Virus record (IMG/VR): IMGVR_UViG_2579779067_000001
DNA: 54,751 nt
Reading direction: 5' to 3' (one strand)
Origin: a virus
Taxonomy: Duplodnaviria > Heunggongvirae > Uroviricota > Caudoviricetes
The position numbers were made by a program, and so were the translations under genes. This document shows positions 9,493 to 54,136 of this stretch, piece by piece (the first letter of the stretch is position 1; every line of letters begins with the position of its first letter). The notes under the pieces were generated by a model. It worked only from the letters and a program-made list of their open reading frames with translations. It made no database searches and was not told the DNA's origin.

Positions 9493-9983
9493 TCATGAGT
9501 CTGTTAAATGACGTTCAGAAATTCATTGAAGCCCATCCGGGGTGTACTTCCGGAGACATTGCTGATGCTTTTGCTGGTTACTCACGGCAGCGCGTTCTGC
9601 AGTCAGCAAGCAAGTTACGTCAGAGTGGGCGTGTGGCTCACCGTTGTGAAGGGGATACACGCAGACATTTCCCGCGCCTGACTGAGAGAGCGCAGGAGCC
9701 GGAACCACAACCAGTTCGTGAAACCAGACCTGTGCGCAATTTCTATGTCGGCACTAACGACCCCCGGGTGATTTTGTGCCTGACCCGCCAGGCTGAAGAA
9801 CTGGAGTCCAGGGGCTTATTCCGTCGAGCTGCAACGGTGTGGATGGAGGCATTCCGTGAAAGCCACTCCCAGCCAGAACGAAACAATTTTCTGGCGCATC
9901 GAGAGCGGTGCTTACGGAAAAGCAGCAAGCGCGCTGCATCGGGTGAAGAGTGGTATCTGTCAGGGAATTACGTGGGGGCTTAA
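9489..9983 (+). CDS. hypothetical regulator, C-terminal PerC/ANR-like motif
   Basis: 164 aa; LESRGLFRRAATVWMEAF resembles the PerC-family signature (memory). Confidence 0.4.
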   Translation: MIMSLLNDVQKFIEAHPGCTSGDIADAFAGYSRQRVLQSASKLRQSGRVAHRCEGDTRRHFPRLTERAQEPEPQPVRETRPVRNFYVGTNDPRVILCLTRQAEELESRGLFRRAATVWMEAFRESHSQPERNNFLAHRERCLRKSSKRAASGEEWYLSGNYVGA

Positions 9984-10636
9984 TGAGTAATAAATATTGC
10001 CAGGCGCTGGTGGAGCTGCGGAACAAACCAGCCCATGAACTGAAGGAAGTGGGCGATCAGTGGCGCACGCCGGACAACATTTTCTGGGGAATTAACACCC
10101 TGTTTGGCCCGTTTGTTCTGGATCTGTTCACTGATGGTGATAACGCCAAATGTGCCGCTTATTACACTGCGGAAGACAACGCGCTGGCGCATGACTGGTC
10201 AGAACGTCTTGTGGAGCTTAAAGGTGCTGCCTTTGGTAATCCCCCGTACAGCCGCGCCAGTCAGCATGAGGGGCAATACATCACCGGCATGCGTTACATC
10301 ATGAAACATGCCAGTGCTATGCGTGATAAAGGCGGGCGCTATGTTTTCCTGATCAAAGCTGCCACCAGCGAAGTTTGGTGGCCGGAAGATGCAGACCATA
10401 TTGCTTTTATTCGCGGGCGTATTGGTTTTGAACTGCCAGCCTGGTTTATCCCGAAGGATGAGAAGCAGGTGCCGACAGGAGCTTTCTTCGCTGGTGCTAT
10501 TGCTGTTTTCGACAAGACCTGGAAGGGACCGGCAATCAGCTACATCGGGCGCGATGAACTTGAGGCATGTGGTGAGGCCTTTCTGGCGCAGGTTCGCCAG
10601 CAGGCAGAAAAACTGGTCAGGGAGATGGTGGCATGA
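9983..10636 (+). CDS. phage DNA N6-adenine methyltransferase (Dam-like orphan MTase)
   Basis: internal ATG at 9983 (TAATG overlap, GGGGG SD); NPPY motif (FGNPPYS); phage N6-adenine-methyltransferase family look. Confidence 0.8.
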   Translation: MSNKYCQALVELRNKPAHELKEVGDQWRTPDNIFWGINTLFGPFVLDLFTDGDNAKCAAYYTAEDNALAHDWSERLVELKGAAFGNPPYSRASQHEGQYITGMRYIMKHASAMRDKGGRYVFLIKAATSEVWWPEDADHIAFIRGRIGFELPAWFIPKDEKQVPTGAFFAGAIAVFDKTWKGPAISYIGRDELEACGEAFLAQVRQQAEKLVREMVA

Positions 10637-10959
10637 CGACGTTAACTCAATGCCAGCAGCAGGTGCTGGATATGCTGATTTCTTATCAGAAAGAACGTGG
10701 CTTCCCGCCAACCAATCAGGAGGTGGCAACCATGCTGGGATACCGTTCAGTGAATGCAGCGGTAGAACATCTTCGCGCACTGGAGAAAAAAGGCGTCATC
10801 ACGATAAAGCGTGGCGTGGCCCTGGGCATCACGCTTCATACCGCGGTGAAGGACGACGACAGCGAGGCGGTCGGGATTATCCGCTCACTGCTTGTCGGTG
10901 AGGAAAACGCCAGGCTGCGTGCAGCCCACTGGTTACATGAGAGGGGCCTGAAAGTATGA
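10633..10959 (+). CDS. LexA N-terminal DNA-binding-domain protein (no peptidase domain)
   Basis: 108 aa; QQQVLDMLISYQKERGFPPTNQEVATMLGYRSVNAAVEHLRALEKKGVI parallels LexA [50 protein letters not shown]. Confidence 0.7.
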   Translation: MTTLTQCQQQVLDMLISYQKERGFPPTNQEVATMLGYRSVNAAVEHLRALEKKGVITIKRGVALGITLHTAVKDDDSEAVGIIRSLLVGEENARLRAAHWLHERGLKV

Positions 10960-11345
10960 AGCTGATCCTGCCTTTCCCGCCCAGCGTGAACACGTACTGG
11001 CGACACCCCAACAAAGGGGCGTTTGCAGGTAAGAGCCTGATAAGCGCGGCGGGGCGCAAATTCCAGAGCGCGGCGTGTGCAGCAATAGTTGAGCAGTTAC
11101 GTCGTCTGCCAAAACCAACGTCGGCACCTGCTTCAGTGGAGATCGTGTTGTTTCCTCCGGATAACCGGATCCGCGATCTGGACAACTATAACAAGGCGCT
11201 GTTTGACGCCCTGACCCACGCGGGTGTGTGGGAAGACGACAGTCAGGTGAAAAGAATGCTGGTGGAGTGGGGACCGGTTATCCCGGAAGGGAAGGTCGAG
11301 ATCACTATCAGTAAGTACGAGAAAACGGCGGGTGCAGCCGCCTGA
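10956..11345 (+). CDS. rusA: Holliday junction resolvase RusA
   Basis: 129 aa; typical RusA N-terminus MKLILPFPPSVNTYW and size. Confidence 0.85.
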   Translation: MKLILPFPPSVNTYWRHPNKGAFAGKSLISAAGRKFQSAACAAIVEQLRRLPKPTSAPASVEIVLFPPDNRIRDLDNYNKALFDALTHAGVWEDDSQVKRMLVEWGPVIPEGKVEITISKYEKTAGAAA

Positions 11346-11364
11346 TTAAGAGGAGAAACGAAGA

Positions 11365-12162
11365 ATGAATAATCTGATGGTCATTGATGGTATTGAAGTT
11401 CGTCGTGATGCTTATGGTCGTTACAGCCTGAACGATCTGCACAGGGCTGCCGGTTCTCTGGATAAGCATAAGCCTGCATTCTGGCTCCGCAATGAGCAAA
11501 CTGAACGTTTAATAAGCGAGTTGCAGATTTGCAACTCGGTCAATATAGAGCCAGTTAACGTTATTCGTGGCGGAAATAACCAGGGGACGTATGTCTGCAA
11601 AGAACTGGTGTATGCCTATGCAATGTGGATCAGCCCGTCATTCCATCTGAAGGTGATCCGTACTTTCGACATGGTAACCAGCGCACCTGAAAAATTATCC
11701 GGACAGGCTGCTGACAAGATGCAGGCTGGCGTGATTCTGCTGGACTTTATGCGCCGGGAATTAAACCTGTCTAACTCATCAGTGCTTGGTGCCTGTCAGA
11801 AACTCCAGGAGGCTGTTGGCTTACCGAATCTGGCACCGCGCTATGCCATTGATGCTCCTGCTGACGCGCCTGATGGCTCAAGTCGCCCCACGCTGTCGCT
11901 GAGTGCACTGCTGAAACAGTATGGTATCCGCCTGACGGCTAATCAGGCATATCACCAGATGGTGAAGCTGGGGATCGTCGAGCAGCGCGAACGATACAGC
12001 CGTACCGCGATTAACAACATCAAAAAATTCTGGTCGCTGACAGCGAAAGGCTGCATGTTCGGCAAGAACATCACCAGTCCCGCAAATCCGCGCGAGACGC
12101 AGCCGCATTTCTTCGAATCCCGATTCCCTGAGCTGTTAAAGCTGCTCGATACCGTTCATTGA
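11365..12162 (+). CDS. KilA-N domain protein (antirepressor-like)
   Basis: 265 aa; N-terminal KilA-N pattern (MVIDGIEVRRDAYGRYSLNDL). Confidence 0.65.
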   Translation: MNNLMVIDGIEVRRDAYGRYSLNDLHRAAGSLDKHKPAFWLRNEQTERLISELQICNSVNIEPVNVIRGGNNQGTYVCKELVYAYAMWISPSFHLKVIRTFDMVTSAPEKLSGQAADKMQAGVILLDFMRRELNLSNSSVLGACQKLQEAVGLPNLAPRYAIDAPADAPDGSSRPTLSLSALLKQYGIRLTANQAYHQMVKLGIVEQRERYSRTAINNIKKFWSLTAKGCMFGKNITSPANPRETQPHFFESRFPELLKLLDTVH

Positions 12163-38727: not shown

Positions 38728-39795
38728 TTAATGAAATTTATCTCGGATGAATTGTTGCGATGGTTTTTCAATAAATATATATGACATATAGCTAATTGCC
38801 ATTAATGTAAGCATGAATAAAATGAATACCTTGGGGCTGTAAAAAAGATCGCGTCCATAGCCAATCTTGTCAGCTAAATAAACAACAATGATTTGCAAAG
38901 GAAAATGTAAAAGATAAGATGAATAACTGATATCGCCCAACCATTCAATTTTTTTTCCAAAATCGTTTCGTATTGCGCTAATTGATACAAGGAAAAAGAT
39001 TATGGAGGTAAATCCGAATAAGATAATTGAGAATATATCTGCTACTTGCAGGGTAAAGATAACTCCCCATGAGATCAATAGAAAAACACAAGCAAAAATA
39101 AAAAATAACTTTGCGCTAATATTTTTTATGGCCGCAATCGTAATTTTATAAGTCAGACCACCAATAAAGAAAGAGAATGCGCCGATCATTATGGGATTGT
39201 TAATTTTGAAAAAGTAGTACGACAATGCAACTATTAAAATTGATATGAATGTTGTTTTTGATGTGAACTTGCATAATATAAAAAATATCATGTACATAAG
39301 TACTTCAATCGACACGGACCATGTCGGGGCGTTGAAGGACCAACCTCGCTCAAATCCCCATGATTGAATCATCAATAAATTCAGAATGGCATGGTAAATG
39401 TCATTCATAGGATAAACAAAAAAATAATTATGACTTTTAAAGAAAATAATTTGTAATATTGCCACGGCAGCAAATGTAAATATATAAAGTGGATATAATC
39501 TACTGACACGGTTAACTATAAAAGTTTTTGCTGAGGTTTTATTGCTGTGTATATTGTCAGCGTATAGATAAAAAAATATGAATCCAGAAATCATAAAAAA
39601 CAATTCGACAGCATATAAACCGTAATGATAAAAGACGGAAAAAAATTCATAAAAAGGTTGGCGGTTTATGATTATGTCAGATGCAGCATTCTTTTTCATA
39701 AAAAAATGTTGCCAATGCCATAACACAACGGAAAGTGCGGCAAATCCTCTCAGAACATCCAGGGTATATATTCTCTTCCCAAAAACATTCGTCAC
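38728..39795 (-). CDS. acyltransferase family 3 membrane protein (O-antigen/LPS O-acetyltransferase-like)
   Basis: 355 aa; multi-TM; N-terminal LDVLRGFAALSVVLWHWQHFF signature; AT-rich; at prophage right end. Confidence 0.8.
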   Translation of the reverse strand: MTNVFGKRIYTLDVLRGFAALSVVLWHWQHFFMKKNAASDIIINRQPFYEFFSVFYHYGLYAVELFFMISGFIFFYLYADNIHSNKTSAKTFIVNRVSRLYPLYIFTFAAVAILQIIFFKSHNYFFVYPMNDIYHAILNLLMIQSWGFERGWSFNAPTWSVSIEVLMYMIFFILCKFTSKTTFISILIVALSYYFFKINNPIMIGAFSFFIGGLTYKITIAAIKNISAKLFFIFACVFLLISWGVIFTLQVADIFSIILFGFTSIIFFLVSISAIRNDFGKKIEWLGDISYSSYLLHFPLQIIVVYLADKIGYGRDLFYSPKVFILFMLTLMAISYMSYIFIEKPSQQFIRDKFH

Positions 39796-40345: not shown

Positions 40346-41215
<870 letters not shown>

Positions 41216-41757: not shown

Positions 41758-42234
41758 TTGAAATTTGAACGAATCTATAAAAATATTACTGGCCTTAGCT
41801 GTCCCATATTCGGGATTCAGTGGAACGCGCCAATAATAGAAGCTGACGAAGCAAAGAAGATCGTCATTTTTCTTGAGGACAAGCGCGTTCTTTTCAATCC
41901 TGTCGACATGGAGGGGGCTAGTCATTGCACTTCGAGTGTTATCAACATTAGATCTGAATTGACTAAAGTCCTACAAGGTTTGCCGAGCGATTCACATTTA
42001 GCGAAACAATTAAGGAAAATGAGAAAAGCATGCCAAGAATTCTGTGACAGCGTTGGCTCCCCTAACTTTATCCAACTTGATCATCCTGTTCAAATATCCA
42101 TACTTGAGCGAGCCCTTTTTAAACTGCGACAAAAGTGTGGTAACTCTCTGGCAGAAATAGCGGTTACCTATGGTCTTGATGTTGATGACGGATTAGCCAT
42201 TATTATCCCTTTTAATAATCCCAGTAACATATAG
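41758..42234 (+). CDS. hypothetical protein
   Basis: 158-aa ORF; TTG start preceded by AAGGAG SD; AT-rich cargo block. Confidence 0.45.
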   Translation: MKFERIYKNITGLSCPIFGIQWNAPIIEADEAKKIVIFLEDKRVLFNPVDMEGASHCTSSVINIRSELTKVLQGLPSDSHLAKQLRKMRKACQEFCDSVGSPNFIQLDHPVQISILERALFKLRQKCGNSLAEIAVTYGLDVDDGLAIIIPFNNPSNI

Positions 42235-42525: not shown

Positions 42526-42601
42526 ACATGTTTTGATGTGGTGGGACGTGTGAGCGCAGTATTGATGGGGTAATGCTTTGAATTAGAAGCGGATTCTTAT
42601 A

Positions 42602-42647
42602 ATTCGTAATGCGAAGGTCGTAGGTTCGACTCCTATTATCGGCACCA
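42602..42647 (+). repeat. attR: 46-bp direct repeat of thrW 3' end
   Basis: identical to 1399-1444. Confidence 0.85.
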
Positions 42648-42811: not shown

Positions 42812-43978
42812 ATGCCCCTAAATGATATGCAGATTCGCCGTGCTAAACCTGAAGCTAAAGCCTATACACTTGGGGATGGGCAAGGGTTGTCTTTACTTGT
42901 AGAGCCAAATGGAAGTAAAAGTTGGCGATTTCGTTACCGCTATGCAGGTAAGCCTAAAATGATCTCGCTTGGTGTCTATCCAACGATCACACTTGCTGAA
43001 GCTCGTTCTCGCCGTGATGAGGCACGAAAAATAGTGGCCGAGGGAAAAAATCCTAGTGAGGTTCGAAAAGAACAAAAACTAGCATTAAGAATTCAATCTG
43101 AGAACGCATTCGAAAAGATTGCCAGAGAGTGGCATCAGATGAAATCGGCAAAATGGTCTGCTGGGTATGCCTCAGATATTATTGAAGCGTTCCAGAATGA
43201 TATTTTTCCGTATGTGGGGGCGAGGCCTGTAGGGGAAATTAAACCGCTAGAATTGCTAAATGTACTGCGTAAAATTGAGAAGCGTGGTGCATTGGAGAAA
43301 ATGCGCAAAGTGCGGCAACGTTGCTCAGAGGTTTTTCGATATGCCATTGCTACTGGAAGAGCAGAGTTTAATCCTGCGGCAGATCTGTCCAGTGCCCTTG
43401 AAGTTCATAAATCAAATCATTTTCCTTTCTTAAAATCAGATGAGATACCTGATTTTCTGCGTGCTTTAGATAGTTATACAGGAAGCCGACTTGTTCAGAT
43501 TGCCACAAAATTATTAATGGTTACGGGGGTTAGAACTATCGAGTTACGAGCAGCATTATGGCAAGAGTTTGATCTAGATAACGCTATTTGGGAAATTCCT
43601 GCTGAGAGAATGAAAATGCGTAGGCCGCACCTTGTCCCCTTATCGACGCAGGCGCTAGGCTTTCTTAATGAACTCAAATCTATGACAGGAAATTATCGTT
43701 ATGTTTTTCCTGGACGGAATGATCCAAATAAACCTATGAGTGAGGCAAGTGTTAATCAACTTATCAAACGAATAGGCTATGCTGGAAAACTTACAGGACA
43801 TGGGTTTAGGCATACATTATCAACAATTCTTCATGAAAATGGCTTTAATACCGCTTGGATTGAAATGCAACTTGCTCATGTAGATAAAAACTCTATAAGA
43901 GGAACATATAATCACGCCCAATATTTTGAAAAGCGAAAGGTGATGATGCAATGGTATTCAGATAATATTTTTAGTTAA
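42812..43978 (+). CDS. int: P4-type tyrosine integrase
   Basis: 388 aa; N-terminal GLSLLVEPNGSKSWRFRYRYAGK arm-binding pattern; C-terminal HGFRHT catalytic region. Confidence 0.9.
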   Translation: MPLNDMQIRRAKPEAKAYTLGDGQGLSLLVEPNGSKSWRFRYRYAGKPKMISLGVYPTITLAEARSRRDEARKIVAEGKNPSEVRKEQKLALRIQSENAFEKIAREWHQMKSAKWSAGYASDIIEAFQNDIFPYVGARPVGEIKPLELLNVLRKIEKRGALEKMRKVRQRCSEVFRYAIATGRAEFNPAADLSSALEVHKSNHFPFLKSDEIPDFLRALDSYTGSRLVQIATKLLMVTGVRTIELRAALWQEFDLDNAIWEIPAERMKMRRPHLVPLSTQALGFLNELKSMTGNYRYVFPGRNDPNKPMSEASVNQLIKRIGYAGKLTGHGFRHTLSTILHENGFNTAWIEMQLAHVDKNSIRGTYNHAQYFEKRKVMMQWYSDNIFS

Positions 43979-44049: not shown

Positions 44050-45645
44050 CTAATTATTGTCATCGTGAAATAAGTTTATGAAGACAATGTCATCCCTTTT
44101 CATATATTTATCTGCTATTGATTTTGTTTTTGTTATTAATTTTTTTGTGATATCTTCATTGTGATAACAATACATTATGTCTTCTAATTTTATACTGGGG
44201 TTAGACAGGTGATATTCATTTTTAGAGTAAACTCCTTTTCCGTTAATGGTGATTATAACAAGCACTATAAAATCACCTAGTTTAGTGGCGATAACTGCTA
44301 AACAACATGCATTTATTTCACTTGGAGGTGATTTTATTTTATTCTTAGATGTCAGTTTCATTGCTGGGGAATAATTTGGGTTACTTAGTAATTGCCCAAT
44401 TATGTTAGTATTATCACTATGTATACCCAATTTTGTAATAGTTGTCTTAACTTGCCCCTGAATACTTAATCGGTCAGATATAATAATAGCATTCTCTGTT
44501 GTATTTAATGCCTGAATACAGCTTTCAATTAATGAGGTGTCTTGTATTAGTTCTTTATTGGCATTTGTTATTAAAGTCATTGGGTTATGACTGTTAGAAA
44601 TATTTATTTCAAATTCCAGCATGTCCTTCTGTTCATAAATCCATCGCATGATGGTTAAATTATCTTTGATCTCAAATAGATTCAATATGTTGTCATATGA
44701 ATCAAATCGATATGTAAGGAGTCCTGTTTTAAGATAAATTAAAATGTCGAAATAAGAGGATTTTAATCTTGCTTTGATATGCTTATCTGGAGCATTGATG
44801 GATAGTGGACTAACATATAATTTACATTCGAGGCGAATGGTTTTTTTTGATGTCATGTTTGTTATTTTCAATATGGCATCTGTTTCAAAATTTTCAACCC
44901 CAAACGATAAATCGGCTTCAGAAAAACTCTTGTTCTCAAGAGGCATAGAGATATTAAATCGTTCGTCAAAGCACTTTATATTTCTAACTTTCGCTTTATT
45001 AACCCATCCAAGAGACGCATTGATCAGATTATCGTATTCAACTTCCGCTTTTGTCTGAAAAGTTAATTTATATCCTCCATTTTCATAACCTAAATTTTTT
45101 AAGTGATTTATTTTCTTTTCAGTATAAACTTCCATACCTTCATTTACGTATGATTCAATTGTAGACTTTAAATGTTCACCTGTTATTGCGTCTAATTTAT
45201 GGGTGCTGTCAAATGATACTGTAATGTTAATTTTGTTCAGTTTTTTGGGTTCTTTTAAAATAGAGTTTTCTCTGGCTCTTTGTAATGTTTTAAACATTAG
45301 ATTTTTATCAAAGTGTCTAACATAAACTGCTTGTGGAGTATTGCTTTTATTATACTCAATGAAAAAAAAGAAAGCGGGGAGCTTACTTCCGCATAAACGC
45401 ATCATATTTGATAAAGTAATTTGTACTTTTTTTGAAGTACCATCAGTTGCTTTGACTTGAATTTTACACTCGATAGGGGATGCACTTTTATCTATCATTG
45501 GGTGAGTTGAAAATTGTGTAGGGAAGTCAACAATGAAATCCCATCCAGCACTGTCTTTTAATGATGGGTTGTATATTAACCCAACAGATGCGCAAAGTTG
45601 CATAAATAATGCTTCGCCCATGCTTCCTAGATCCCGTTCTTGCAC
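44050..45645 (-). CDS. P4-hotspot protein of unknown function (possible N-terminal PD-(D/E)xK-like nuclease motif)
   Basis: 531 aa; very AT-rich; GTG start with AAGGTG SD; N-terminal GEALF...GWDFIVDF...ECKIQVK. Confidence 0.7.
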   Translation of the reverse strand: MQERDLGSMGEALFMQLCASVGLIYNPSLKDSAGWDFIVDFPTQFSTHPMIDKSASPIECKIQVKATDGTSKKVQITLSNMMRLCGSKLPAFFFFIEYNKSNTPQAVYVRHFDKNLMFKTLQRARENSILKEPKKLNKINITVSFDSTHKLDAITGEHLKSTIESYVNEGMEVYTEKKINHLKNLGYENGGYKLTFQTKAEVEYDNLINASLGWVNKAKVRNIKCFDERFNISMPLENKSFSEADLSFGVENFETDAILKITNMTSKKTIRLECKLYVSPLSINAPDKHIKARLKSSYFDILIYLKTGLLTYRFDSYDNILNLFEIKDNLTIMRWIYEQKDMLEFEINISNSHNPMTLITNANKELIQDTSLIESCIQALNTTENAIIISDRLSIQGQVKTTITKLGIHSDNTNIIGQLLSNPNYSPAMKLTSKNKIKSPPSEINACCLAVIATKLGDFIVLVIITINGKGVYSKNEYHLSNPSIKLEDIMYCYHNEDITKKLITKTKSIADKYMKRDDIVFINLFHDDNN

Positions 45646-46884: not shown

Positions 46885-47385
46885 TCATTCCAGACGCAGC
46901 GAATATGATTGTGTTTTTAACCGTACTGGCGGCAGTTCCTGTTTTTCATGCAGGCGTTCTGCCAGTTCGTCCGGCGTGACCGGGCGGACAATGAAGCGGG
47001 TGATGGTCTGAAGCGTTTTAAACACCAGACCACAGCCCGGATCCGTGCACACATAAAAACGCTCGGTGACTTCCTGAGACAGACGCCGCGATGTTCTTGA
47101 CAGTGCAAGGCCTTTACATCTCCGACAACAATATCCGGTAACAAGCATTCTTTTCGGGCGTTTCATGCTACCGGAGGCTGACGTCAGTGAATCGCGGTAT
47201 CTCTGTTTGCCTGAAATGTATTCCATTCCTGAATCTTTACAGTCAGAGAAAAAGCTTTCACTCGCTTCAAATGTCGCAGAGCAATAAATATTCCGGCACT
47301 GTGCAATCATTATCTTGGTGCCATCGTCCATGAAATGTGCGCGACGGGTGTGAGCAACATGTCCACACGACGGGCAGTAAATCAT
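46885..47385 (-). CDS. delta: late transcription activator Delta (tandem Ogr-type zinc fingers)
   Basis: 166 aa; CPSCGH...CRNIYCSATF repeated twice. Confidence 0.85.
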   Translation of the reverse strand: MIYCPSCGHVAHTRRAHFMDDGTKIMIAQCRNIYCSATFEASESFFSDCKDSGMEYISGKQRYRDSLTSASGSMKRPKRMLVTGYCCRRCKGLALSRTSRRLSQEVTERFYVCTDPGCGLVFKTLQTITRFIVRPVTPDELAERLHEKQELPPVRLKTQSYSLRLE

Positions 47386-48134
47386 GACAGCAGCCCTCTG
47401 GCCTTAAGCTCTGCTCCCTGCTGGTCTATTTTGTCCTGCCACACCTTGCGCTGTGCCGGTGTGCCTGCCACCTCATAATCCATGTGCGGAAGTGTTGCCG
47501 CTGACAGTCCGGTCAGCCGGAGAACCGGCTCGCCGGTGAGGCTGATTTGCATCTGTTTAATTTTCTGTTCCAGCGATGATTTCACCTGCTGCATGACAGC
47601 CTTTTCCGGTGCGACGCAGCCCTGATGGCCGGTGGTGTTGGCGAGCGGATTTTCCTGTACCAGGATACTCAGATGCATTGCCCGGACAAGCGCCTCACAG
47701 GTTTCATTCAGGGCGTGTTCCAGCTCATGCTCTGCATACAGACTCAGAAGGTGATGATGTGCCTTCCGGTAGGCGGTGGCCGTGCTGTCACACGCCCCTT
47801 TCAGGCGTTCACGTTCAAAATTCAGCACCACGGCCAGATTGTCATATTCCTGTACCAGCTCCCGGCGTGCCACGCGCTCAATGTGGCGCTGTTTCAGCTC
47901 GTCGCTCAGGACACCACCGGCTGCACGAAAGGCCGTGCGCCAGTCGTCAGCGTCGTTTCCGTCGGCCTGCGCCAGCGCATTTTTTTCCTGCTCTGCCCGT
48001 TCAATGGCCGTGACGGTCTCATCCATCAGGCGGGCGTTCTCAAGATGGGCGGCTCTGGCCTTTTCCAGTTGTGCCAGCGCGGGTTGCAGATATTCAGGGA
48101 TGGTGTTGTCAGACATTTTCCGGCTCCTCGTCAC
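47382..48134 (-). CDS. sid: capsid size determination protein Sid
   Basis: 250 aa, alpha-helical; position upstream of delta and psu. Confidence 0.75.
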   Translation of the reverse strand: MTRSRKMSDNTIPEYLQPALAQLEKARAAHLENARLMDETVTAIERAEQEKNALAQADGNDADDWRTAFRAAGGVLSDELKQRHIERVARRELVQEYDNLAVVLNFERERLKGACDSTATAYRKAHHHLLSLYAEHELEHALNETCEALVRAMHLSILVQENPLANTTGHQGCVAPEKAVMQQVKSSLEQKIKQMQISLTGEPVLRLTGLSAATLPHMDYEVAGTPAQRKVWQDKIDQQGAELKARGLLS

Positions 48135-48283: not shown

Positions 48284-48390
48284 ACTGTTCACCTCTGTTC
48301 ACCATAAGAAAAAAGATAAGTAATACAGTAAGTTAAAGGGTGAACAATCGCAGTAATGACTGTTCACCGTCTGTTCACCACTGTTCACCC
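48284..48390. repeat. P4 ori-like iteron cluster (six TGTTCACC octamers)
   Basis: TGTTCACC at about 48286, 48295, 48338 (reverse), 48360, 48371, 48381. Confidence 0.65.
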
Positions 48391-48668
48391 GTTGATGGGC
48401 TTTTTGTGCTGTTTATTACTGTTTGTTTTTATTAATTCGCCGGGAATGAATAAGAAAAAACGATTTGTATTTCACTATAAAAATTACGAATTGCTTTAAG
48501 TGGCTTTAAATGACTTTAAGTGGAGATGAACAAAAAACACACAAGCATTGTAAGGCTGCCGGAACAAATCCCCCCTGTTGCGTCTGCTGAAAATATTCAC
48601 AAAATAAAGCGCTACCCGAAGCCGGACGGACTTATCCGGTGCTGTATGGACATTAACGAGGTAGCCCG

Positions 48669-48935
48669 ATGCAAGCTGTTTTTTCTTCCCCGTCTCCCGC
48701 CCCTGTGACGCCACTGATGCCGCTGCCGGACATCACGCAGGAGCGTTTTTTACGTCTGCCGGAAGTGATGCACCTGTGCGGCCTGTCACGCTCGACCATC
48801 TACGAACTCATCCGTAAGGGGGAATTTCCGCCGCAGGTGAGTCTTGGCGGTAAAAATGTGGCCTGGCTGCACTCTGAAGTCACCGCATGGATGGCCGGGC
48901 GCATTGCCGGACGCAAACGGGGGTACGACGCATGA
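48669..48935 (+). CDS. Vis/AlpA-family HTH regulator (P4 orf88-like)
   Basis: 88 aa; [28 protein letters not shown]lpA-type HTH. Confidence 0.7.
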
Positions 48936-49531
48936 TGATGCCTGTTCTGCAAAAAGTCCCTTTTTCTGGCTTGCCTTTTTCCGGCATTTGCGGATATAGT
49001 TTTTCCGCTGCCGCAAAATCGGCAGCCGGGCGTGAGAACCCGAGTATGTTATCGGCGACATATGACGCGCCATGCGTCTTTTTTTGTGTCGCAATCAACG
49101 CCACAGAGCGCCAGATTATGGTGTGGTGTGTGGTCAGTCGAGCAGATGGCACTCCGTGCATCCTGCCCGCGTCCGCTCATTATGCCGCAGAGTCAATGGT
49201 AGCTCAGGCGGGGCAGCCTCCGGGCTGGCCGGTATCCGTTAGAGCCGGTATTTCCACCCCCGTCTGGGCTATCGCCATCGAGCGTGGAAACTCCGGCGAT
49301 AGCGTAACCTGCTATCTAACGGAGGCTGCCATCATGGCTACAACCCTTACCCCTTCACACCCTGAATTTGTCTTTGTGTTTGCGGCTGTCCGTCGCGCAG
49401 ACCGTCATCCCCGTATCTGTATGCTTCGCACCGTCGCCGGTGATGAACGCAGTGCCCGCCGTTCCCTTGTCCGTGACTATGTGCTCTCCCTTGCTGCCCG
49501 TCTGCCGGTGGTGGAGGTGTCCCGTGCGTAA
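48932..49531 (+). CDS. hypothetical P4-like protein (199 aa from internal ATG)
   Basis: ATG at 48932 gives 199 aa, matching a P4 ORF size (memory). Confidence 0.4.
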
Positions 49532-49811
49532 TAAAAAAGCCCCTCAGACCGTCTCAGCACGTCATGACGCCCGTGAACACCTCAGCATTGAGGCTTACCA
49601 TAAGCTCAACCGCGCCAGCGCCGTATCCCAGTTTGTTGGGGGGGATTTGATTCACCGTGAACTCTCCGGCCTGCATCAGCTCTACATTCCGCATATTTTC
49701 AGCTACCTGAATGAAGATATTGATTTTGTGCTGAATGAGCTGAAAGCCAAAGGCCTGTGCCGCGATTTTCTCGCCCAGCAGAAAGACCGGGGAGACAGGA
49801 CGCATGTTTGA
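49524..49811 (+). CDS. hypothetical P4-like protein (about 95 aa, GTG start)
   Basis: GTG overlapping upstream stop; protein-like segment of track ORF 49368..49811. Confidence 0.4.
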
Positions 49812-50259
49812 TTTTCCCCAGCCCGGTGAGATTTACCGTTCTGCCGGTTTTCCCGATGTGGCCGTGGTCGGCATTCTGGAAGACGGTATTCCGTGGGAAA
49901 TGCCGTACCGCTGCCCGGAAATTGTCTGGAACCCGTACCGCCGTAAATTCAGTATCCTTGTGCGTATCCTCGCCGACGGGCGCACCACAGACATCCCGCT
50001 GGGGCGTTTTCTGCGGGAATTTACCTGTGACCGTCCTGACCTGTTTAAACGCAGCCCCGTAAACCGGCATGCGGTACTGAAAGAAATGGCCGGAGACCCG
50101 GAATTACAGAAATGGCGGGAGAAATATCTGGATATTTACCCGCAGGACCCTGTTCCGGCCAGCCGGGCGGCACCGGTGGCGCGGGAATGGCGGGAAATTC
50201 CCTGCACGGAGCCTGACCCGGAAATCACCCCGGATAACAGTTACCGCAATTATCTGTAA
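49804..50259 (+). CDS. hypothetical P4-like protein (151 aa)
   Basis: 151-aa ORF; size matches P4 orf151 (memory). Confidence 0.5.
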   Translation: MFDFPQPGEIYRSAGFPDVAVVGILEDGIPWEMPYRCPEIVWNPYRRKFSILVRILADGRTTDIPLGRFLREFTCDRPDLFKRSPVNRHAVLKEMAGDPELQKWREKYLDIYPQDPVPASRAAPVAREWREIPCTEPDPEITPDNSYRNYL

Positions 50260-50394: not shown

Positions 50395-50715
50395 ATGAAA
50401 ACACCCTTACCGCCCGTCTTACGCGCTGCCCTTTACCGTCGCGCTGTCGCCTGTGCCTGGTTGACCGTGTGCGAACGTCAGCACCGCTACCCGCATCTCA
50501 CCCTTGAGTCACTGGAGGCGGCCATCGCCGCTGAGCTGGAAGGCTTTTATCTGCGCCAGCACGGTGAGGAAAAAGGGCGTCAGATAGCCTGTGCCCTGCT
50601 GGAAGATTTAATGGAATCCGGCCCCCTGAAGGCCGCGCCGTCGCTGTCCTTTCTCGGGCTGGTTGTGATGGATGAACTCTGTGCCCGTCACATAAAAGCG
50701 CCGGTACTGCACTGA
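50395..50715 (+). CDS. hypothetical P4-like protein (106 aa)
   Basis: ORF directly upstream of alpha. Confidence 0.45.
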
Positions 50716-50729
50716 AGGAGAACAACACC

Positions 50730-53063
50730 ATGAAAATGAACGTAACCGCCACCGTCAGCCATGCGCTCGGCCACTGGCCGCGTATTCTCCCGGCGCTGGG
50801 GATTCAGGTGCTGAAAAACCGTCATCAGCCCTGTCCGGTCTGTGGCGGGAGTGACCGCTTCCGTTTTGATGACAGGGAGGGGCGCGGCACCTGGTACTGC
50901 AATCAGTGTGGTGCCGGTGACGGCCTGAAACTGGTTGAAAAGGTGTTTGGTGTTTCCCCGTCCGACGCGGCCACAAAGGTGGCTGCCGTGACCGGCAGTC
51001 TGCCCCCGGCTGACCCGGCAGTGACGGCTGCCGCCGTTGCTGAAACAGACGCTGCCCGGAAGAACGCTGCCGCACTGGCACAAACCCTGATGGCAAAAAC
51101 CCGTCCCGGAACCGGTAACGCCTACCTGACCCGCAAGGGCTTTCCCGACCGGGAATGCCGGATGCTGACCGGCACACACAGAGCCGGTGGCGTGAGCTGG
51201 CGCGCCGGTGACCTTGTGGTGCCACTGTATGACGACAGCGGCGAACTGGTTAACCTTCAGTTAATCAGTGCTGACGGCCGTAAGCGCACCCTGAAAGGCG
51301 GACAGGTCAGGGGCACCTGTCACACCCTTTAAGGACAGAATCAGGCCGGAAAACGTCTGTGGATAGCGGAGGGATACGCGACCGCACTTACCGTGCATCA
51401 CCTGACCGGTGAAACGGTGATGGTGGCGCTTTCTTCCGTGAACCTCCTTTCTCTGGCCAGCCTTGCCCGGCAGAAGCATCCGGCCTGTCAGATTGTCCTT
51501 GCCGCTGACCGTGACCTCAGTGGTGACGGCCAGACAAAAGCCGCCGCAGCCGCAGATGCGTGTGAAGGTGTTGTTGCCCTGCCGCCGGTCTTCGGTGACT
51601 GGAATGATGCCTTCACGCAGTACGGCGGGGAAGCCACCCGTAAGGCCATTTACGATGCCATCTGGCCACCGGCTGAAAGCCCGTTCGACACCATGAGCGA
51701 AGCGGAGTTTTCCGCCATGAGTACCAGCGAAAAGGCCATGCGTATCTATGAGCATTACGGCGAGGCGCTCGCGGTCGATGCCAACGGCCAGCTTCTGTCC
51801 CGCTATGAAAATGGTGTCTGGAAGGTGCTGCCGCCACAGGACTTTGCCCGGGATGTGGCCGGGCTGTTTCAGCGGCTGCGTGCGCCGTTCTCCTCCGGGA
51901 AGGTGGCCTCCGTGGTGGACACCCTGAAGCTGATTATTCCGCAGCAGGAAGCCCCCTCCCGCCGCCTGATTGGCTTTCGTAACGGCGTGCTCGACACGCA
52001 GAACGGCACGTTCCACCCGCACAGTCCGTCACACTGGATGCGCACCCTGTGCGATGTGGATTTCACCCCGCCGGTGGACGGTGAAACGCTGGAGACCCAC
52101 GCCCCCGCGTTCTGGCGCTGGCTTGACCGTGCCGCCGGTGGCCGTGCGGAAAAACGCGACGTGATTCTGGCCGCACTGTTTATGGTGCTGGCAAACCGCT
52201 ACGACTGGCAGCTCTTTCTGGAGGTGACCGGTCCCGGCGGCAGCGGCAAAAGTATCATGGCCGAAATCGCCACCCTGCTGGCCGGGGAGGATAACGCCAC
52301 GTCGGCCACCATCGAGACGCTGGAATCCCCGCGTGAACGTGCCGCGTTAACTGGCTTCTCACTGATACGCCTGCCGGACCAGGAAAAATGGAGCGGCGAC
52401 GGTGCCGGACTCAAGGCCATCACCGGCGGTGATGCGGTGTCCGTTGACCCGAAATACCGGGATGCGTACTCCACGCATATCCCGGCGGTGATTCTGGCCG
52501 TGAACAATAACCCGATGCGCTTCACCGACCGCAGCGGCGGCGTGTCACGCCGGCGGGTGATTATTCACTTCCCGGAACAGATAGCCCCGCAGGAGCGCGA
52601 CCCGCAGCTTAAGGACAAAATCACCCGCGAGCTGGCGGTCATCGTGCGTCACCTGATGCAGAAGTTCAGCGACCCGATGCTCGCCCGGTCACTGCTTCAG
52701 TCCCAGCAGAACTCAGACGAGGCGCTGAACATCAAACGGGATGCCGACCCGACGTTTGATTTTATCGGCTATCTGGAAACCCTGCCGCAGACCAGCGGCA
52801 TGTATATGGGGAACGCCAGTATCATCCCGCGTAATTACCGTAAATACCTCTATCACGCCTATCTGGCCTACATGGAGGCAAACGGCTACCGGAATGTACT
52901 CAGTCTGAAAATGTTCGGGCTGGGGCTGCCGGTGATGCTGAAGGAATACGGACTGAATTACGAGAAGCGCCATACCAAACAGGGGATACAGACCAACCTG
53001 ACGCTGAAAGAGGAAAGCTACGGCGACTGGCTGCCAAAATGTGACGACCCTGCAACAGCCTGA
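50730..53063 (+). pseudogene. alpha: P4 alpha primase-helicase with in-frame TAA at 51330-51332
   Basis: track ORFs 50730..51332 and 51393..53063 share one frame; total 777 codons, the size of P4 alpha; N-terminal zinc finger CPVCGGSDRFRFDD...CNQCG. Confidence 0.75.
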
Positions 53064-53070
53064 CCCACCT

Positions 53071-53096
53071 GACCGGCATCTGCCGGTCTTTTTTTA
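53071..53096 (+). terminator. rho-independent terminator after alpha
   Basis: GACCGGCA-TC-TGCCGGTC hairpin followed by T7. Confidence 0.7.
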
Positions 53097-53529: not shown

Positions 53530-53562
53530 CCTATTATCGCACCATTTAAATCAATAAGTTAC
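53530..53562 (+). repeat. degenerate copy of the thrW 3' end plus prophage-1 attL arm
   Basis: CCTATTATCG-CACCATTTAAATCAATAAGTTAC matches 1429-1462 with a 1-nt deletion. Confidence 0.75.
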
Positions 53563-53700
53563 CTCACATTTCAGTAAACTACGTTCTCCTCTTGTGCCTT
53601 TGATTTTGCTCGCGTGCGCGGTGAAATGCCTGACTGAAAGGTGAGCATATCGACGAACCATTTCGAGAGTTTCCCATCCGCTCATTTTTAAGTGCAAGCA
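53563..53700 (-). pseudogene. integrase 3' remnant
   Basis: minus-strand reading ...[14 protein letters not shown]...* parallels prophage-1 integrase ...[14 protein letters not shown]...; 28-bp identity to 1568-1595. Confidence 0.6.
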
Positions 53701-54136
53701 GGGAAACACCGGACTAAACCAATCAGCTGTTCGAAAATGGCAAGCGGATTAATATGCCATGGCGGCTTTGAGCCGCACGTATGGGGTGTGGCAAGCCTGA
53801 TGGATGTTGCTGTGCTTGTGGTGGCGTCTTTGCTGGTCTGGTTGTTGGTTAATCGCGAAAATCATTATGCCAGAGGAATACCACAGGACGTTCAGGTTTT
53901 GCATAAAAAAGCCCACCATTAAGGTGGGCAAAAGGAATGATTTATATTCTCTGAGAGAAACATTACATTTCTCCTTGTCACTTCTAACATAAAAATATGG
54001 AGAAATAATGGAGCTTATATTAATTGGCGATTAGGTAACCATGTGGTTATACAAAACAATACAGTTCTTTACATTTGCCTTGTTTTATGAATACTCCTGA
54101 AGAGGTGTACAACATAATTAAACAAACAGGGTAAAT

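Follow-up and report, generated by a model that had tools for sequence, protein, structure and literature searches.

A single ochre codon interrupts the alpha gene of a P4-like satellite in Escherichia coli UCI 57

What becomes of a P4-like satellite when the gene for its own replication protein is cut by one stop codon? The question is raised by the right end of a 54,751-nucleotide stretch of DNA (IMG/VR virus record IMGVR_UViG_2579779067_000001, hereafter the window), where a satellite of about 10.9 kb, running from attL at 42601 to attR at 53544, occupies a thrW-derived attachment site in Escherichia coli UCI 57. Its alpha gene, a primase-helicase gene of the P4 type, appears in the window as two separate open reading frames (ORFs). 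By descent the locus is alpha; in its present form it is a pseudogene. The explanation that we hold with good confidence is a recent loss-of-function point mutation in alpha, which would halt autonomous replication of the satellite.

The alpha reading frame and its internal stop

Positions 50730-53063 on the plus strand make up one frame of 777 codons plus a terminal TGA (778 in the translation), with one internal stop. This stop is a TAA at 51330-51332, codon 201 of alpha, and the next base is G (TAAG). The two remaining frames of the same interval contain 38 and 37 stops, so the 777-codon frame is genuine and broken once rather than a chance pattern. An earlier note on this DNA had described ORFs at 50730..51332 (200 amino acids, aa) and 51393..53063 (556 aa) that share a frame and together have the length of P4 alpha. 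The ORF listing and the translation show these coordinates to be exact, and 200 + 1 + 20 + 556 codons do give 777. The note's further claim, that exactly one ochre codon cuts the gene, agrees with the single internal TAA in the translation.

50730..51332 (+): 5' part of alpha, 200 codons and the premature TAA; zinc ribbon and Ala/Pro-rich variable linker
51330..51332 (+): ochre codon 201 of alpha; TAA here, GAA (Glu) in P4 and in every relative examined
51393..53063 (+): 3' part of alpha, an ORF of 556 aa from the GTG of V222, in the same frame as the 5' part

The public assembly of E. coli UCI 57 (GCA_000692835.1, scaffold KK736542.1) also carries the TAA, and every base of the scaffold is identical to the window across their 14 kb overlap. 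There the gene was deposited as two 'hypothetical proteins', KDG88030.1 (AE16_00119, 200 aa) and KDG88031.1 (547 aa, starting at the ATG of M231 at 51420). These two entries should be corrected to one alpha pseudogene with an internal stop.

Comparison with P4 accounts for the stop at the level of a single base. In a megablast search of phage records, the full 2334 nt of the window alpha matched P4 alpha with 98.6% nucleotide identity, and this identity, together with equal length and equal domain order, upholds the assignment of the locus as a P4-like alpha. Comparison base by base with the P4 genome (NC_001609 4636-6969, reverse complement) gives 32 substitutions, 22 of them in synonymous codons, and 0 indels. 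The alignment that the earlier note had proposed for finding the residue at codon 201 gives GAA (Glu) in P4, so that the difference there is a G>T change at 51330 (GAA to TAA). Because P4 and all relatives examined have GAA, the TAA arose by a single G>T. The window shares with P4 gene alpha (NP_042036.1, 777 aa) the zinc ribbon, the EGYATA, DxD and Walker A motifs and the C-terminal domain, and, as in P4, cnr lies upstream and the alpha terminator and crr lie downstream, the ori and crr iterons being identical. It differs from P4 alpha in the TAA at codon 201 and in eight further amino-acid differences, five of which fall in linker residues 82-140.

Amino-acid differences between alpha alleles in general are found mostly in codons 70-140 (50940-51150), an Ala/Pro-rich stretch between the zinc ribbon and Toprim, and some metagenomic alpha copies carry in-frame indels upstream of codon 201. 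Judging from its sequence variation, the 70-140 stretch behaves like a flexible, weakly constrained linker.

The domain organization of alpha has been summarised previously (PMC2777425). The domains and motifs, numbered by alpha residue, fall as follows relative to the stop.

50817-50927 (+): Zn_Ribbon_Prim (PF08273), P4 alpha residues 30-66; Pfam, E = 3.4e-19
51369..51386 (+): EGYATA, the first Toprim motif, codons 214-219, with the catalytic Glu214
P4 alpha residues 210-299: Toprim_3 (Pfam)
Alpha residues 260-262 (+): DxD (DRD) of Toprim
P4 alpha residues 336-467: D5_N (Pfam)
P4 alpha residues 500-608: helicase core, DUF5906 (Pfam)
52230-52253 (+): Walker A GPGGSGKS of the SF3 helicase, alpha residues 501-508
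P4 alpha residues 670-768: Pox_D5 C-terminal domain (Pfam)

The N-terminus had been called a zinc-finger primase domain from the letters alone, and the Pfam match bears this out; the cysteine motifs of the ribbon are CPVCGG at residues 35-40 and CNQCG at 57-61. The stop stands at the end of the Ala/Pro-rich linker, 9 residues before the Pfam Toprim match and 13 codons before EGYATA, and Toprim, D5_N, the helicase and Pox_D5 all lie downstream of codon 201, so the 200-aa product retains the zinc ribbon alone. EGYATA itself falls after the stop but ahead of the first canonical restart codon, and the motif is therefore in neither predicted polypeptide. No translated product holds Toprim with both its catalytic Glu and DxD, and the Toprim_3 match in the 556-aa ORF covers profile positions 19-93 only. 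The glutamate at 214 is said to have a catalytic role in the alpha primase, a finding reportedly due to Strack et al. in 1992. The P4 literature places the primase residue of alpha at E214 and the NTPase residues at G506/K507, and these numbers coincide with the motif positions in the window sequence. The downstream ORF on its own keeps the SF3 helicase and C-terminal domains, with D5_N, DUF5906 and Pox_D5 above the Pfam cut-offs and the P4-family model TIGR01613 at 110 bits against a cut-off of 108.7. Owing to the TAA at codon 201, the window encodes no single polypeptide of about 777 aa that unites the three activities.

Distribution and age of the ochre allele

This part of alpha is present in 1,005 of the 5,426 complete E. 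coli genomes that we searched. The closest match to a 301-nt alpha query had one mismatch, and a 45-mer centred on the TAA gave 0 matches in the 5,426 genomes. The 45-mer was designed so that megablast seeding is impossible unless the central base matches; the identical test applied to another substitution in this alpha, K269T, recovered 210 genomes, so it does detect shared alleles. Beyond complete genomes, a degenerate 36-mer with G or T (K) at the first base of codon 201 was scanned over metagenome, GTDB and IMG/VR contigs. It found the locus on 69 metagenome, 4 GTDB and 51 IMG/VR contigs, and codon 201 was GAA in every one (124/124). A single contig carries the exact 200-aa product, and E. 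coli UCI 57 is the one strain named for it. The TAA allele is thus private to one assembly. The closely similar thrW element of E. coli UTAK-1 (NZ_CP157165.1), in contrast to the UCI 57 copy, has an uninterrupted alpha with GAA at codon 201, and the two alpha genes differ at 36 nucleotides.

All 8 of the relatives that were annotated or compared have alpha as a single 2334-nt coding sequence. A natural two-gene split in homologs, which the earlier note had named as one of two observations that would overturn its interpretation, is ruled out by these 8/8 relatives, by the absence of the 45-mer elsewhere and by the 124/124 loci with GAA.

The four GTDB contigs with the 36-mer are short pieces of metagenome-assembled genomes labelled Clostridiales, Ferruginibacter, Ruminococcus and 'bacterium'. 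The two of their alpha copies that were aligned are about 98-99% identical to P4 alpha at the amino-acid level, and the contigs are almost certainly E. coli-derived binning contamination.

We next asked how old the lesion is. Counted beyond the stop, synonymous/non-synonymous codon differences between the window and four intact alleles are 16/3, 14/3, 16/4 and 21/5, and the same comparison among intact alleles themselves gives 8/1 to 25/4. No further stop or frameshift occurs in alpha after codon 201. An old lesion followed by relaxed selection is unsupported, the downstream ratios being like those among intact alleles. With no decay measurable in the codons past the stop, either the mutation is recent or, less likely, it is an artefact, and we infer that the nonsense event is recent. 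Judged against seven references, three missense changes in the window alpha at first appeared private. G140D turned out to be common to strain GDAR2-2 and K269T to the 210 genomes mentioned above, while R312W (CGG>TGG at 51663, codon 312) had no 45-mer match in the 5,426 complete genomes.

Disrupted alpha genes are not confined to UCI 57. Of the alpha copies in the metagenome, GTDB and IMG/VR loci, 106 were available at full length; five of these carry frameshifts and one is truncated at the 5' end, all at positions other than that of the ochre codon. This puts the background of disrupted alpha at about 5%, a figure that may include some assembly errors.

Predicted loss of replication and the alternatives

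In the sequence of events that we favour, the G>T change at 51330 ends translation from the native start after 200 residues, and the product has neither the catalytic centre of Toprim nor the SF3 helicase and lacks the winged-helix domain that binds the ori and crr iterons. With the helicase and origin-binding domain no longer joined to a start codon, the satellite would, as the earlier note had suggested, be unable to fire ori/crr, and self-initiated replication after derepression or helper infection would be lost despite intact cis sites and other genes. Helper infection would then lead at best to excision and packaging as a single unreplicated copy, and the element would persist as a largely immobile island with immunity region and hotspot cargo gene retained. 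Downstream of the stop, V222 is preceded by no in-frame ATG, GTG or TTG, and no promoter-like site was found inside alpha, including any for the downstream ORF. A passage of PMC8628076, citing Ziegelin 1993, describes alpha as essential for P4 replication. In having a nonsense codon in alpha, the UCI 57 satellite resembles the laboratory amber mutants of P4; here, however, the codon is a natural ochre in a resident prophage of a clinical isolate. Such amber mutants, attributed to Gibbs et al. in 1973 and Ziegelin et al. in 1995, are reportedly replication-defective in non-suppressing hosts.

Several observations weigh against so complete a loss. V222 and M231 are in-frame starts at 61 nt and 88 nt past the stop, and the ATG of M231 has a moderate Shine-Dalgarno-like GGUGA at a spacing of 6. 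Its calculated pairing with the anti-Shine-Dalgarno sequence, -7.6 kcal/mol, compares with -8.8 kcal/mol at the native alpha start and a mean of -4.6 over all ATG and GTG codons in the gene. Re-initiation at M231 could give a 547-aa helicase/origin-binding product, retaining D5_N, the helicase, Pox_D5 and the TIGR01613 domain. Ziegelin et al. in 1995 are also reported to have found that P4 can replicate with a primase-null alpha as long as host DnaG is active, the primase function being dispensable unless DnaG activity is missing, and that alpha lacking primase and alpha lacking helicase complement each other in trans; if so, the loss of replication may be incomplete. Moreover, complete E. coli genomes hold up to four copies of P4-like alpha, so that another P4-like element could supply alpha in trans. 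Restart at M231 or V222, DnaG primers or a second alpha could in these ways make the stop tolerable at the price of reduced replication, and the lack of any surplus of damaging changes downstream is consistent with this. We nevertheless consider such tolerance unlikely. A local hairpin is predicted to occlude the start region of M231, a UAA with a following G terminates translation efficiently, and 1.7 kb of untranslated mRNA with no internal promoter invites Rho-dependent termination; the arrangement also occurs in no other genome searched, so that nothing points to selection in its favour. It is decidedly improbable that both products are functional, as a free zinc-ribbon peptide and an M231 helicase/origin-binding protein making up a variant retained by the host. 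Were that the case, the M231 product would bind the identical ori and crr iterons and could keep the element replicating with host DnaG, or could instead trans-dominantly block incoming P4-type satellites that use the same iterons.

A different objection is that a sequencing, assembly or consensus error may lie behind the TAA, or that the change arose in a laboratory stock, the natural gene being intact. The allele is indeed known from one draft assembly and absent everywhere else searched, and the remainder of the gene and of the element is flawless. The change is, however, a substitution and not a homopolymer indel, and consensus-level substitution errors are rare in such assemblies, of which the 4.67-Mb scaffold indicates a good one. 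R312W, as a second unmatched change in the same allele, fits a real, slightly diverged lineage, and with about 5% of other alpha copies disrupted a real lesion is not improbable a priori; an error is, in our judgement, quite unlikely. That the stop is instead part of a natural zinc-ribbon/helicase gene pair, or is programmed for read-through or recoding, we find scarcely credible. The break does coincide with a domain boundary, at the linker's end and just short of the Toprim match, but the split is not conserved, the close homologs all being one coding sequence with GAA, and it leaves neither product with the catalytic Toprim Glu. Of the three stop codons UAA is the one read through least readily, we know of no recoding signal that applies at alpha codon 201, and the sole tRNA found in the window is a tRNA-Thr, with no suppressor tRNA present.

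Recent inactivation of alpha by point mutation also agrees with what has been published on elements of this kind: among the core genes of defective P4 and P2 elements, the primase gene is the one most frequently pseudogenised (PMC13586616, 2026). The same study suggested that loss of replication is possibly an important step in the inactivation of such elements, and alpha-less variants are among the frequent incomplete P4-like types (Moura de Sousa & Rocha, PMC8628076). The UCI 57 case is a clean single-base instance of this already known pattern, an ordinary gene inactivation. It has in common with the defective P4-like satellites of Enterobacterales the lack of a functional alpha, predicted here from the reading frame. 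It differs from eroded P4-like satellites in having a lesion of one base, with cos, the two att sites and the other core components all intact. With its only visible defect a single base in the replication gene, the element may stand at the outset of domestication or decay. Studies of satellite mobilisation could use it as a natural alpha-null control, as could work on whether the defence-hotspot cargo functions when the satellite does not replicate.

The rest of the satellite and its surroundings

P4 positions 4291-11624, which begin at crr, take in psu and finish at the right cos end, correspond to window positions 53409-46075 at 98.1% identity. The features mapped in the satellite outside alpha are these.

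42601..42647: attL, a 47-nt copy of the thrW 3' end
42812..43978 (+): tyrosine integrase, 388 aa
46056..46074 (-): cos 19-nt end, 19/19 identical to P4
46239..46811 (-): psu, full length
46885..47385 (-): delta, full length
47382..48116 (-): sid, 244 aa, full length
48286..48523: ori (P4), six type-1 iterons and three type-2 repeats
48286..48389: six ori type-1 iterons (TGTTCACC), all identical to P4
48494..48523: three ori type-2 repeats, all identical to P4
48669..48935 (+): alpA/orf88, 88 aa, length as in intact relatives
48932..49531 (+): Ash/Icd-like ORF, 199 aa, length as in intact relatives
48994..49279 (+): isrK, c4-a1b1 and C4 (P4 CI) RNA, Rfam matches inside the Ash/Icd-like ORF
49524..49811 (+): epsilon (derepression protein, 95 aa), length as in intact relatives
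49804..50259 (+): orf151, length as in intact relatives
50395..50715 (+): orf106/cnr (DUF5375), 106 aa, the copy-number regulator directly upstream of alpha; intact
53071..53095 (+): Rho-independent terminator of alpha, 25/25 nt identical to P4
53109..53408: crr (cis replication region), two 120-bp direct repeats; ten type-1 iterons identical to P4
53529..53544: attR core TCCTATTATCG-CACCA, in the same form at the right end of the intact UTAK-1 element

The core set of P4-like satellites has been defined as int, psu, delta, sid, alpA, epsilon/ash and alpha (Moura de Sousa & Rocha, PMC8628076). In the window, int, Psu, Ogr_Delta, sid, AlpA, Ash, the derepression protein and alpha follow one another in P4 order, alpha being included only as a split gene. 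Gene lengths on the public contig equal those in P4 or in the intact UTAK-1 element. That the ori iterons, crr repeats and alpha terminator are intact, as first proposed from the sequence, held up in feature-by-feature mapping, where each was identical to P4; the cognate cis sites of alpha are thus present, with 16/16 type-1 iterons and 3/3 type-2 repeats matching P4. Rfam identified the C4 (P4 CI) immunity RNA and its targets without damage, and the RNA-based immunity of the satellite appears intact. Alpha is the sole visibly damaged part of the element.

The UTAK-1 thrW element shares with the UCI 57 satellite the 388-aa integrase, a 531-aa hotspot gene, the form of the att site, and gene order and lengths. 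The two differ in their setting. In UTAK-1 the element lies directly at thrW with the pao operon downstream, whereas in UCI 57 thrW and the satellite are separated by a prophage of about 41 kb and there are no pao genes. In the window, thrW (tRNA-Thr CGT) is at 1369-1444 and is followed by this prophage, which ends at the 47-nt copy of the thrW 3' end (42601-42647). As the copy at the prophage end serves as attL of the satellite, the two elements are arranged in tandem at thrW. The prophage encodes lambdoid regulators, an HK97-type head and a Mu-like contractile tail with baseplate genes. It is not P2-like by annotation and so is probably not the helper of the satellite; annotation revealed no P2-type helper within the window.

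Several genes near the element boundaries also drew our attention. Toward the right end of the prophage, a GIY-YIG protein (40346-41170, minus strand) matches PADLOC PD-T4-3 (E = 2.6e-140) and is adjoined by a DUF6650 ORF at 41758-42234; an acyltransferase at 38728-39795 (minus strand) was placed by its position and length relative to strain EC01307. Between attR and yagU (53545-54136), an ORF at 53551-53709 (minus strand) resembles the C-terminus of a tyrosine integrase and had no Pfam hit. The LysR remnant and paoABCD of UTAK-1 and EC01307 are absent from this interval in UCI 57, which suggests a deletion or a different junction. Within the satellite, the int-psu defence hotspot holds the 531-aa ORF (44050-45645, minus strand), whose GC content is about 30%, compared with 52-64% in the satellite core. 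Its product had no match in Pfam, PADLOC 2.0 or NCBIfam. The gene is also present in the intact UTAK-1 element, and we regard it as a candidate uncharacterised anti-phage gene.

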